A stretch of DNA of 64,000 bases, taken from a phage. The notes beneath the pieces were generated by a model. The model worked only from the letters and a program-made list of their open reading frames with translations, ran no database searches and was not told the DNA's origin. The stretch lies in the NCBI GenBank assembly GCA_021469345.1, contig GCA_021469345.1_3049.1; one strand, written 5' to 3'. This document shows, piece after piece, positions 47,789 to 54,215 of the stretch. The translations under genes were made by a program, and so were the position numbers. Positions within the stretch are counted from its first letter, which is position 1, and the number at the start of each line of letters is the position of its first letter.

Positions 47789-49216
47789 GTGGTAGAAATT
47801 ATTCTTTCTCATCTTATATTTGATCAAGCTTATTTTTCAAAAGTTTGGCCATATATGGATTCAGAATATTTTGAAAGTGGTCCAGCTAAAAATACGTTCA
47901 AATTAATTAAATCTCATGTTAATGAGTATCATAGCGTTCCATCTATTAATGCGTTAAATGTTGCATTAGAAAATAGTTCATTTACTGAAACAGAATATTC
48001 TGGTGTAAAAACACTTATTTCAAAACTAGCTGATTCTCCGGAAGACCACAGCTGGTTAGTAAAAGAAACAGAAAAATATGTTCAGCAAAGGGCGATGTTT
48101 AATGCTACGTCTAAAATAATCGAAATTCAAACTAATGCTGAGCTTCCTCCGGAAAAACGAAATAAGAAAATGCCGGATGTTGGTGCTATTCCTGACATTA
48201 TGCGTCAAGCATTATCAATTTCATTTGATAGCTACGTTGGTCATGATTGGATGGATGACTACGAAGCACGTTGGCTATCTTATATGAATAAAGCTCGTAA
48301 GGTTCCATTTAAACTCAGAATTCTAAACAAAATTACTAAAGGCGGAGCTGAGACTGGAACGCTGAACGTTTTAATGGCTGGCGTTAACGTTGGTAAATCA
48401 TTAGGACTTTGTTCATTAGCAGCAGATTATTTGCAGCTTGGTCATAACGTTCTTTATATCTCCATGGAAATGGCAGAAGAAGTCTGTGCTAAGCGTATTG
48501 ACGCTAATATGCTTGATGTTTCTCTTGATGACATTGATGATGGACATATTTCTTACGCTGAGTATAAAGGAAAAATGGAAAAATGGCGTGAGAAATCTAC
48601 TCTCGGTCGTTTAATTGTTAAACAGTATCCTACTGGTGGAGCAGATGCTAATACATTTCGATCACTTTTAAACGAATTGAAGCTCAAAAAGAATTTTGTT
48701 CCAACAATCATTATTGTCGACTATCTAGGTATTTGTAAATCTTGCCGCATTAGAGTTTATTCAGAAAATAGTTACACAACTGTTAAAGCTATTGCAGAGG
48801 AATTGCGGGCTCTGGCTGTTGAAACCGAAACTGTTCTTTGGACTGCAGCGCAGGTTGGTAAACAAGCTTGGGATTCTTCCGATGTTAACATGAGCGATAT
48901 TGCAGAATCTGCCGGTCTTCCAGCGACAGCCGATTTTATGCTTGCGGTCATTGAAACCGAGGAGCTAGCAGCTGCTGAACAACAACTCATTAAGCAAATC
49001 AAATCACGATATGGTGATAAGAACAAATGGAATAAGTTTTTGATGGGTGTTCAAAAAGGAAATCAGAAATGGGTAGAAATTGAACAAGATTCTACTCCAA
49101 CTGGAGTGAGTGAAGTAGCAGGTTCACAACAGATTCAGGCTGAGCAGAATCGCTATCAAAGAAACGAATCGACTCGAGCTCAGTTAGATGCTTTGGCAAA
49201 TGAATTAAAATTTTAG
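47789..49216 (+). CDS. 41: replicative helicase gp41 (DnaB-like, 475 aa)
   Basis: Walker A GVNVGKS; size and position as T4; GTG start. Confidence 0.95.
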   Translation: MVEIILSHLIFDQAYFSKVWPYMDSEYFESGPAKNTFKLIKSHVNEYHSVPSINALNVALENSSFTETEYSGVKTLISKLADSPEDHSWLVKETEKYVQQRAMFNATSKIIEIQTNAELPPEKRNKKMPDVGAIPDIMRQALSISFDSYVGHDWMDDYEARWLSYMNKARKVPFKLRILNKITKGGAETGTLNVLMAGVNVGKSLGLCSLAADYLQLGHNVLYISMEMAEEVCAKRIDANMLDVSLDDIDDGHISYAEYKGKMEKWREKSTLGRLIVKQYPTGGADANTFRSLLNELKLKKNFVPTIIIVDYLGICKSCRIRVYSENSYTTVKAIAEELRALAVETETVLWTAAQVGKQAWDSSDVNMSDIAESAGLPATADFMLAVIETEELAAAEQQLIKQIKSRYGDKNKWNKFLMGVQKGNQKWVEIEQDSTPTGVSEVAGSQQIQAEQNRYQRNESTRAQLDALANELKF

Positions 49217-49274: not shown

Positions 49275-49457
49275 ATGGAATTGGTAAAGGTAGTTTTTAT
49301 GGGGTGGTTTAAGAATGAAAGCATGTTTACTAAAGAAATCACAATGATGAAAGATGACGTTCAATGGGCTACTACTCAATATGCTGAAGTTAATAAAGCA
49401 TTAGTTAAAGCTTTCATTGATGACAAGAAAGTATGTGAAGTGGATTGCCGAGGATAA
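49275..49457 (+). CDS. dmd: Dmd antitoxin (60 aa)
   Basis: size and position first after gene 41; sequence recalled as T4 Dmd. Confidence 0.8.
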   Translation: MELVKVVFMGWFKNESMFTKEITMMKDDVQWATTQYAEVNKALVKAFIDDKKVCEVDCRG

Positions 49458-49777: not shown

Positions 49778-50071
49778 ATGAAAAAATTTATCTTTGCTAC
49801 AATTTTTGCTTTGGCTTCTTGTGCTGCTCAGCCTGCTATGGCAGGTTATGATAAAGATTTGTGCGAATGGTCTATGACTGCGGATCAGACTGAGGTTGAA
49901 ACTCAAATTGAAGCAGATATTATGAATATCGTTGAGCGCGATCGTCCTGAAATGAAAGCTGAAGTGCAAAAACAACTTAAGTCTGGTGGTGTAATGCAGT
50001 ATAATTATGTTCTGTATTGCGATAAAAACTTTAATAACAAAAATATCGTAACCGAAATCACAGGTGAATAA
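49778..50071 (+). CDS. sp: Spackle periplasmic protein (97 aa)
   Basis: trimmed to ATG 49778; signal peptide; size and position as T4 sp. Confidence 0.75.
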   Translation: MKKFIFATIFALASCAAQPAMAGYDKDLCEWSMTADQTEVETQIEADIMNIVERDRPEMKAEVQKQLKSGGVMQYNYVLYCDKNFNNKNIVTEITGE

Positions 50072-50873: not shown

Positions 50874-51902
50874 ATGTCATCAATACCTTGGATTGATAAT
50901 GAGTTTGCATACCGTGCATTAGCTCATTTACCTAAATTCACACAAGTAAATAATAGTTCAACTTTTAAATTGCGGTTTAGATGCCCAGTGTGTGGAGATT
51001 CAAAAACCGACCAAAATAAAGCCCGTGGATGGTATTATGGTGATAATAATGAAGGAAATATTCATTGTTATAACTGTAACTATCATGCACCAATCGGAAT
51101 ATATTTAAAGGAGTTTGAACCTGATTTATATCGTGAGTATATCTTTGAAATAAGAAAAGAAAAAGGTAAAAGTCGTCCAGTAGAAAAACCTAAAGAACTT
51201 CCTAAACAACCTGAGAAGAAAATAATTAAATCTCTTCCGTCATGTGTTCGATTAGATAAACTGGCGGAAGACCATGCAATTATAAAATATATAAAAGCTC
51301 GTTGTATTCCAAAGGATAAATGGAAATATCTTTGGTTTACAACTGAATGGCCTAAATTAGTTAATAGCATAGCACCGGGAACATATAAAAAGGAAATACC
51401 TGAGCCTCGTCTTGTTATTCCAATTTATAATGCTAATGGAAAAGCTGAGTCTTTTCAAGGACGTGCATTAAAGAAAGATGCTCCTCAAAAATATATCACC
51501 ATCAAAGCTTATCCTGAGGCAACAAAAATCTATGGAGTCGAACGAGTTAAAGATGGTGATGTATATGTTCTAGAAGGACCTATAGATTCACTTTTTATTG
51601 AAAATGGTATAGCTATTACGGGCGGTCAATTAGACCTAGAAGTTGTTCCATTTAAAGATAGACGTGTGTGGGTTTTAGATAATGAACCTCGTCATCCTGA
51701 CACTATTAAGCGAATGACTAAATTAGTTGATGCAGGAGAAAGGGTTATGTTTTGGGATAAATCTCCCTGGAAATCAAAAGATGTTAATGATATGATTAGA
51801 AAGGAAGGTGCAACCCCTGAACAAATTATGGAATATATGAAAAATAATATTGCCCAGGGGTTAATGGCTAAAATGCGGTTATCTAAATATGCTAAGATTT
51901 AA
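50874..51902 (+). CDS. 61: DNA primase gp61 (342 aa)
   Basis: zinc-ribbon CPVCGD...CYNC and TOPRIM region; size and position as T4. Confidence 0.9.
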   Translation: MSSIPWIDNEFAYRALAHLPKFTQVNNSSTFKLRFRCPVCGDSKTDQNKARGWYYGDNNEGNIHCYNCNYHAPIGIYLKEFEPDLYREYIFEIRKEKGKSRPVEKPKELPKQPEKKIIKSLPSCVRLDKLAEDHAIIKYIKARCIPKDKWKYLWFTTEWPKLVNSIAPGTYKKEIPEPRLVIPIYNANGKAESFQGRALKKDAPQKYITIKAYPEATKIYGVERVKDGDVYVLEGPIDSLFIENGIAITGGQLDLEVVPFKDRRVWVLDNEPRHPDTIKRMTKLVDAGERVMFWDKSPWKSKDVNDMIRKEGATPEQIMEYMKNNIAQGLMAKMRLSKYAKI

Positions 51903-52099
51903 ATTAACCCAACTAAAGCAAATGCTAAATCTACAAATGTATCAAGAGTAACTACTGGAATACTAACGCCATGAGCAATAGCAACTGGCGATAAAACAAA
52001 ATTCCAAAGTAAAATTCCTACCATAGCAGAAATAGTAAAAGCTATACGCTTTTTATTACCTTTGATGGCATTAACAAGTGCCATTAATTTTTGTACCAT
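51899..52099 (-). CDS. small hydrophobic membrane protein (66 aa), antisense to flanking genes
   Basis: ORF track; AAGGAGG SD 4 nt before ATG on minus strand; GATAAATA late-promoter-like element upstream; two predicted TM helices. Confidence 0.5.
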   Translation of the reverse strand: MVQKLMALVNAIKGNKKRIAFTISAMVGILLWNFVLSPVAIAHGVSIPVVTLDTFVDLAFALVGLI

Positions 52100-52201
52100 A
52101 TGTCCTCCTTTAAATTAATATTTATCGCAAAACGTGTTAGTATTACTATCAAATACATATGATGAAGAATTGTATAATTCGTTTTTTGCTGCAATAAATG
52201 A

Positions 52202-52990
<789 letters not shown>

Positions 52991-53050
52991 TTGCTTACAT
53001 ACTCAAATGATATAATTATTTAACTTATTAATGAATTGAAAGGAAAACTA

Positions 53051-53569
53051 ATGGCTCACTTTAATGAATGTGCTCATTTGATCAAAGGTGTTGATAAAGC
53101 AAATCGTGCATATGCTGAGAATATTATGCACAATATTGACCCACTGCAGGTTATGCTTGATATGCAGCGGCATTTACAGATTCGTTTGGCTAATGATAAA
53201 CCAGAAACAAATCGTCATCCCGATTCACTTGAAACTGCAGGAGAAGTTCTTGCTTGGCTGCGAAACCAAGACGATTATATCGCAGACGAAACTCGCGAGT
53301 TATATACTTCTCTTGGCGGTATGAGTAATGGCGAAAAAGAAGCTTCTGCTGTATGGAAACCTTGGAAGAAACGTTATTCTGAAATGCAATCCAAGAAAAT
53401 TCAAGATTTATCTCCTGAAGATCAGCTTGAAATTAAATTTGAACTGATTGACCAATTTCACTTTTTCATGAATAAATTTATTGCTCTTGGAATGTCAGCT
53501 GAAGAAATCTTTAAACTTTATTATCTGAAAAATGCCGAGAACTTTGCTCGTCAGGACCGAGGTTATTAA
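53051..53569 (+). CDS. 56: dCTP pyrophosphatase gp56
   Basis: trimmed from TTG 53036 to ATG 53051; size and position as T4. Confidence 0.85.
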   Translation: MAHFNECAHLIKGVDKANRAYAENIMHNIDPLQVMLDMQRHLQIRLANDKPETNRHPDSLETAGEVLAWLRNQDDYIADETRELYTSLGGMSNGEKEASAVWKPWKKRYSEMQSKKIQDLSPEDQLEIKFELIDQFHFFMNKFIALGMSAEEIFKLYYLKNAENFARQDRGY

Positions 53570-53939: not shown

Positions 53940-53947
53940 TATAAATA
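53940..53947 (+). promoter_or_regulatory. T4-type late promoter core TATAAATA upstream of soc
   Basis: exact TATAAATA about 30 nt before soc ATG, then AAGGAG SD. Confidence 0.55.
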
Positions 53948-53978: not shown

Positions 53979-54215
53979 ATGGGTGGTTTCGTTAATATAA
54001 AGACCTTTACTCATCCAGCAGGTGAAGGCAAAGAAGTTAAAGGTATGGAAGTTTCTGTTCCGTTTGAAATCTATTCTAACGAGCATCGTATTGCAGATTC
54101 TCATTATCAGACCTTTCCTTCTGAAAAGGCAGCATATTCTACTGTAGTTTCTGATGCAGCTGACTGGAAAACTAAGAATGCTGCAATGTTTACGCCTACA
54201 GCAATAGGTGGTTAA
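53979..54215 (+). CDS. soc: small outer capsid protein Soc homolog (78 aa)
   Basis: VNIKTF and HYQTFPSEKAAYSTV segments match T4 Soc as recalled. Confidence 0.85.
   Translation: MGGFVNIKTFTHPAGEGKEVKGMEVSVPFEIYSNEHRIADSHYQTFPSEKAAYSTVVSDAADWKTKNAAMFTPTAIGG

Follow-up and report, generated by a model that had tools for sequence, protein, structure and literature searches.

Outside its own family, the closest described counterparts of the gene considered here are small membrane proteins. Phage T4 already has a holin, T, while RI and RIII are small, non-essential proteins that act late on a membrane protein. RI has an N-terminal membrane anchor and a periplasmic C-terminus, and it combines a folded periplasmic domain of approximately 70 aa with a releasable SAR anchor. 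Imm and Sp, which are small envelope proteins of the same phage group, are products of early genes on the early strand and act early. Small holins and pinholins, such as S68 of phage 21 and gp17.5 of T7, are hydrophobic proteins of 60-70 aa that are expressed late, and AcrZ and MgtS are single-pass peptides without enzymatic domains that bind larger membrane proteins. The gene dam.1 resembles each of these systems in a limited respect. It shares size, hydrophobicity and probable late expression with the small holins, membership of the same phage group with Imm and Sp, and its proposed mode of action with AcrZ and MgtS, to which it is not homologous. Its proposed layout is like that of RI, and its likeness to RI and RIII is one of mode only; compared to RI, the dam.1 product has only approximately 24 residues past the transmembrane (TM) helix, and a profile search shows no sequence similarity between the two. 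The same kind of search shows no homology to Imm or Sp, even though sp lies only 2 kb away from dam.1 in the DNA analysed.

The window examined in this study, by which we mean the whole 64,000-nucleotide stretch of phage DNA (contig GCA_021469345.1_3049.1), is a segment of a T4-type (Tequatrovirus) genome with its early genes on the + strand. The + strand carries 66 of the 70 open reading frames (ORFs) with 110 aa or more, and the other four, on the minus strand, lie inside + strand ORFs, in agreement with an earlier note, made from the sequence alone, that nearly every gene in the window has the same orientation. That note also singled out a 66-aa minus-strand ORF between gene 61 and dam, which was recovered at 51899-52099, and described it as antisense; the opposite orientation stands, but the wording is loose in that the coding overlap with gene 61 amounts to only 4 nt. 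The features of the locus are as follows.

47789-49216, + strand: gene 41
49275-49457, + strand: dmd
Between dmd and gene 61, + strand: 61.x/sp cluster, with sp at 49778-50071
50874-51902, + strand: primase gene 61
51899-51902: convergent stop overlap of 4 nt between gene 61 (+) and dam.1 (-)
51899-52099, - strand: coding sequence of the dam.1 orthologue, 66 aa plus TAA stop, ATG start, product MVQKLMALVNAIKGNKKRIAFTISAMVGILLWNFVLSPVAIAHGVSIPVVTLDTFVDLAFALVGLI
51902-51973, - strand: residues 43-66, a turn of conserved pattern (H/Q/Y)G..(L/I)P that leads into a short hydrophobic helix (52-65)
51974-52045, - strand: residues 19-42, TM helix predicted by hydropathy and AF2, with invariant W32-N33 and P38
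52046-52099, - strand: residues 1-18, basic N-tail (K4, K13, K16, K17, R18), predicted cytoplasmic
52062-52087, + strand: terminator-like hairpin (ATGGCA..TGCCAT plus T-run) from a pattern scan, inside the 5' coding part of dam.1 (first 13 codons)
52104-52110, - strand: Shine-Dalgarno sequence AAGGAGG, read from the sequence, 4 nt before the ATG
52119-52126, - strand: late-promoter-like box GATAAATA, which agrees with TATAAATA at 7/8 positions and differs at -13
52211-52990, + strand: dam
53036-53569, + strand: gene 56

The length of the dam.1 ORF is by itself poor evidence of coding, since an M-ORF of at least 64 aa was obtained in 2.2% of shuffles of the 308-nt gap; what settles its status as a gene is conservation, both in dN/dS and in the protein across genera. 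The ORF in the window differs from that of T4 at 14 nucleotides, 11 of which are at codon position 3, giving a dN/dS of 0.07 and products that are 95% identical (3 residues differ), and dN/dS across within-genus pairs was 0.07-0.22. Homologues were identified by tblastn in 696 phage records, or in 946 when a distant family member was used as the query, and are restricted to T-even phages of Enterobacterales. As a locus scan of IMG/VR yielded 7 loci, GenBank phage records were used for the locus comparison instead. The homologue loci inspected belong to Tequatro-, Mosig-, Gapriver-, Kanagawa-, Dhaka-, Jiaoda-, Moon- and Gelderlandvirus, and at every one of them the homologue faces the 3' end of the primase gene in convergent orientation, with a far-side neighbour that varies among dam, gene 56, a homing endonuclease gene and a small ORF. 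Across nine genera the amino-acid identity drops to 30-55%; in the cross-genus alignment W32, N33, P38, G44 and P48 are invariant and an acidic residue is kept at position 53. In the enterobacterial T-even phages (Tevenvirinae), dam.1 is a real accessory gene that encodes a protein and is under purifying selection. The earlier note had staked its proposal in part on conservation of the ORF in close relatives, and close and distant relatives alike keep it.

The 4-nt overlap between the stops of gene 61 and dam.1 is also found in T4, JB75, Manna, Bas37, APCEc01, Moon and UTK0003. Other phages have a different arrangement: in VR20 the two genes are separated by a gap of approximately 200 nt (locus L012, 2192-2396), in JD18 by a gap of 18 nt (L016, 1692-1710), and in ZX14 they overlap by 24 nt (L013, 2154-2177). 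In IME08, where the homologue is unannotated, the stop arrangement also departs from the 4-nt overlap (L015, 1698-1701).

The family to which dam.1 belongs is already catalogued and uncharacterised, and is not a discovery of this study. The product matches the profile of PHROG 2024, function unknown (E=5.4e-31, residues 2-66 against positions 1-65 of 65), and the T4T record HM137666 annotates the gene as dam.1 (hypothetical protein, T4Tp032; ADJ39749.1). The orthologue in RB69 is RB69ORF029w; these family members are 63-69 aa long and occupy an identical place, convergent with gene 61. Hundreds of records list the product as 'hypothetical protein' or 'putative membrane protein'. In T4, dam.1 is intact at 17738-17938 of NC_000866 (locus L001, 3239-3439) and is unannotated in NC_000866, AF158101, K03113, X01416 and MT984581; the RefSeq and AF158101 records leave a 309-bp stretch around it empty. 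Because the T4 reference annotation omits the gene, it is skipped by the T4 CRISPRi-ART and HIDEN-SEQ libraries. Two annotation-driven genome-wide screens of T4, the reference phage of this group, thus never scored dam.1. With the gene added, the T4 reference would lose a minor gap in its annotation, and a conserved, probably late membrane microprotein would be listed as a candidate for what is unexplained in T-even lysis timing, lysis inhibition and envelope biology. dam.1 is otherwise ordinary, with a catalogued family, non-essentiality in the one relative tested and no sign in its sequence of a new mechanism. A literature search, including searches by gene names, found no paper discussing dam.1, and neither of two other phage Tn-seq preprints deals with the gene. 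In Nolan et al. 2006, RB69ORF029w is placed with the novel ORFs of RB69, those without a T4 match, although T4 has an orthologue.

Both of the expression signals described in the earlier note were found where it had placed them, and both are conserved in nine genera. A Shine-Dalgarno sequence of the form GGAG or GGAGG occurs at the place equivalent to that of AAGGAGG in all nine genera examined, and in 9/9 genera the ATG is preceded, at a distance of 18-27 nt, by the TAAATA core of the late-promoter-like box. The box takes the following forms.

Tequatrovirus: GATAAATA
Mosigvirus: AATAAATA
Gaprivervirus and Jiaodavirus: CATAAATA
Dhakavirus IME08 and Kanagawavirus ZX14: TATAAATA, a perfect match
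Moon and Gelderlandvirus: ATTAAATA

The base of the box that varies between genera is the one at -13, which is the least constrained position of T4 late promoters; among 50 listed T4 late sites, 32 match perfectly, nine differ by an A at -13 and the others have single deviations (PMC2988020; PMC1524935). The record of phage Lutter annotates the equivalent 8-bp site as 'promoter'; when RB69 was scanned with an HMM in 2006, the region upstream of RB69ORF029w received no late-promoter call. Late transcription of dam.1 is well supported by sequence, and the gene is probably expressed late from its own gp55-type promoter, with a predicted transcription start near 52111-52113 and a leader of approximately 13 nt. 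T4 late genes have their TATAAATA-type box approximately 6 nt ahead of the transcription start, just 5' of the gene.

A canonical late promoter is also present elsewhere in the window, where a soc-like ORF at 53979-54215 (+) has a perfect TATAAATA at 53940-53947 (+), 31 nt upstream. This box is located on the early-gene strand, and its distance from the ATG is comparable to that of the dam.1 box.

Signals for the end of transcription were considered on both strands. A scan of the minus strand to 51000, up to approximately 900 nt past the dam.1 stop, returned zero terminator-like sites, and late transcription would hence continue into gene 61 in antisense. On the + strand, the hairpin at 52062-52087 (-12.4 kcal/mol in a 40-nt fold) may end gene 61 transcripts before dam, and 'terminator' features are annotated at the dam.1 locus in the fPS-90 and SA21RB records. 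The hairpin is found in T4 and is absent from other genera; as it is confined to Tequatrovirus, the idea that it forms a conserved part of the dam.1 element was rejected.

The dam.1 product has a GRAVY of 1.28, which bears out its earlier description as very hydrophobic. All five of its basic residues lie within residues 4-18 and its only acidic residues are D53 and D57; the nine homologues compared carry 4-6 K/R in the N-tail, and 0-1 K/R together with 1-2 D/E in the C-tail. Given the positive-inside rule and this bias of K/R towards the N-tail, the N-terminus is predicted to be cytoplasmic. The AF2 model, obtained with a 20-sequence alignment (pLDDT 76), contains a helix at 2-12, a second at 16-42 with a pLDDT of 82-85, and a third at 52-65, which a loop at 43-51 separates from the second. 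The TM helix measures 24-27 residues, compared to 14 for the C-terminal helix, which begins at the conserved acid D53 and also carries D57. In distant homologues the C-tail has Pro-Pro ahead of a hydrophobic stretch of only approximately 13 residues, and TMHMM placed a single TM segment at 21-41 of RB69ORF029w (PMC1524935). Because the C-terminal helix is short and acidic, because of the Pro-Pro in distant homologues and because TMHMM called a single segment, one TM helix with a short tail is favoured over a two-TM hairpin. The earlier note had predicted two TM helices: the one at approximately 19-42 is robust, but the second appears in the AF2 model as a 14-residue acidic helix. Residues 43-66 are most likely too short to cross the membrane a second time and would form a tail that is periplasmic, interfacial or re-entrant, and the product is predicted to insert in the inner membrane as a single-pass, N-in/C-out protein. 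Hydropathy, AF2 and the charge bias all support the small membrane protein that had been proposed.

Searches beyond the T-even phages gave little from which a function could be read. The dam.1 product had zero matches in Pfam at E up to 10 and zero in NCBIfam, holin families included in both cases, and three family members had zero matches to the PADLOC defence models at E up to 10. Two word-indexed profile searches returned T-even phage proteins only, and nothing beyond the family of dam.1 itself came out of an exhaustive HMM search of 1.84 billion representatives. A profile search of PDB sequences gave nothing below E=2.4, and a BFVD fold search with the AF2 model gave one orthologue plus noise, in which matches to holins were insignificant (E >2); a 66-residue helical hairpin is uninformative for fold searching. 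As the family has no detectable relatives outside itself among these representatives, transfer of function by homology is impossible.

Direct evidence on dispensability comes from Bas37, a close relative, whose orthologue bas37_0144 has the same length (201 nt) and is likewise encoded opposite to the primase gene, which it overlaps by 4 nt. In the transposon-insertion screen of Bas37 by HIDEN-SEQ, bas37_0144 was hit at 20/24 TA sites and is classed as non-essential on K-12. Two comparisons with clinical (uropathogenic) isolates show no effect, with log2FC values of 0.33 and 0.20, each with an adjusted p of 1. By analogy, such dispensability fits an accessory modulator, as with rI and rIII.

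The explanation that best accounts for these findings as a whole, and towards which we lean, is that dam.1 encodes an accessory late inner-membrane microprotein that acts by helix-helix contacts. A clockwise transcript of the gene would start from a gp55-type late promoter of its own, GATAAATA, and its strong Shine-Dalgarno sequence would direct translation. The 66-aa product would then enter the inner membrane with its basic N-tail left in the cytoplasm, span it with a single TM helix in which Trp-Asn is invariant, expose a short acidic C-terminal segment to the periplasm, and associate through the polar Asn with itself or with a larger membrane protein. A helix-helix mode of action is proposed because the product has approximately 66 residues and no enzymatic domain. 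The target is a more tentative matter. On the basis of timing, location, dispensability and the analogy with rI and rIII, first rank goes to the machinery of lysis and of the late envelope (holin T, RI or spanin timing, or the integrity of the envelope in lysis inhibition), which is a possible target rather than a likely one. A still more specific version, and a somewhat doubtful one, is that the Trp-Asn face binds a TM segment of holin T, or the RI/spanin machinery, and thereby tunes lysis timing or stabilises lysis inhibition. If dam.1 does have a lysis-tuning role, it would have been overlooked because the T4 reference lacks the gene and because its loss gives no plaque-level defect. dam.1 sits outside any lysis cassette; we know of no r phenotype for it, and to our knowledge the classical r-mutant hunts mapped no gene at this locus.

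There are several other potential explanations for a conserved small hydrophobic protein at this position. The earlier note had raised holin- or antiholin-like, superinfection-exclusion and toxin-type roles, none of which gained support from any test. A protein of holin, pinholin or viroporin type, forming pores that depolarise the membrane and thereby set or hasten lysis, would suit a product that is small, very hydrophobic and probably late, in which a polar Asn within the TM helix could drive oligomerisation; moreover, UniProt labels OE5505, the orthologue recovered by the fold search, 'Holin', although this name is unreviewed. However, none of the holin families in Pfam or NCBIfam is matched and the holin folds in BFVD match insignificantly. 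Compared to the small holins, the dam.1 product lacks a charged C-tail, since its charged tail is N-terminal and its C-terminus (...AFALVGLI) is hydrophobic and free of K/R, and its gene has primase and dam or gene 56 as neighbours rather than an endolysin. The non-essentiality of the Bas37 orthologue also argues against dam.1 being the holin. Membership of the holins was rejected on the profile search, the C-tail, and the location and essentiality expected of a lysis cassette, and a pore-forming role is improbable. Another candidate role is that of a morphogenesis helper or virion-associated peptide, such as one that anchors prohead initiation to the membrane or acts on membranes during ejection. 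The predicted late timing is that of structural genes and the predicted membrane location would suit such a role, but dam.1 is far from the structural modules and its Bas37 orthologue is non-essential, so that we consider this explanation as improbable as a holin. A membrane factor that acts in superinfection exclusion, protects against lysis from without, or counters a membrane-acting abortive-infection system of the host is unlikely too, if less so than either of these. dam.1 adjoins a cluster rich in accessory and counter-defence genes (dmd, 61.x, sp), its Bas37 orthologue is classed as non-essential on K-12, and the family is restricted to T-evens of Enterobacterales, all of which would agree with such a factor. 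Against it, the dam.1 promoter is late-type rather than early, no PADLOC or other family is matched, and the two Bas37 comparisons show no conditional fitness effect on the uropathogenic isolates.

Two further explanations are far less probable than any of the above. It could be argued that the ORF is incidental, the region being kept as a gene 61 terminator and dam promoter, and that the late transcript serves only as antisense RNA against gene 61 mRNA. The terminator-like + strand hairpin inside the ORF, the lack of a terminator-like site on the minus strand to 51000, which would let the transcript enter gene 61 antisense, and the frequency with which shuffled sequence gives an ORF of similar length can all be cited in favour. 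On the other hand, dN/dS is far below 1 with changes concentrated at third positions, the ORF, its motif and its Shine-Dalgarno sequence persist in nine genera despite divergence of the DNA, the hairpin is absent outside Tequatrovirus, and Rfam covariance models gave zero matches at E up to 1 in 51700-52400. A purely non-coding explanation, whether terminator or antisense RNA, was rejected on dN/dS and cross-genus protein conservation, while an antisense side-effect could coexist with the dam.1 protein. The second of these explanations, a type I toxin-like small hydrophobic peptide, has the size and hydrophobicity of the product in its favour and is equally hard to credit. No antitoxin RNA feature was seen and no Pfam, NCBIfam or PADLOC family was matched; purifying selection acts across genera, and the gene belongs to a strictly lytic phage and has what appear to be a strong Shine-Dalgarno sequence and a late promoter.

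The 111-nt gap between the dam.1 ATG and the start of dam (52100-52210) holds divergent signals. The 1984 T4 record X01416 annotates a potential early promoter for dam, P(E)17.40 (locus L019, 1534-1562), the -35 region of which abuts or overlaps the dam.1 late box on the opposite strand, and the same record lists a 'potential alternative dam protein'. Read by eye, a TGCT...TATAAT arrangement at 52185-52212 appears to overlap the dam ATG. The window lacks an insertion of approximately 540 bp that is found between dam.1 and dam in many other Tequatroviruses, including JB75 (locus L002, 2000-2560), HY03 and ACG-C40. This insertion encodes a 186-aa ORF that belongs to PHROG 8706 (function unassigned) and resembles, below the Pfam threshold, the restriction endonucleases DpnII and BanI, a curious similarity beside a gene for a GATC methyltransferase.
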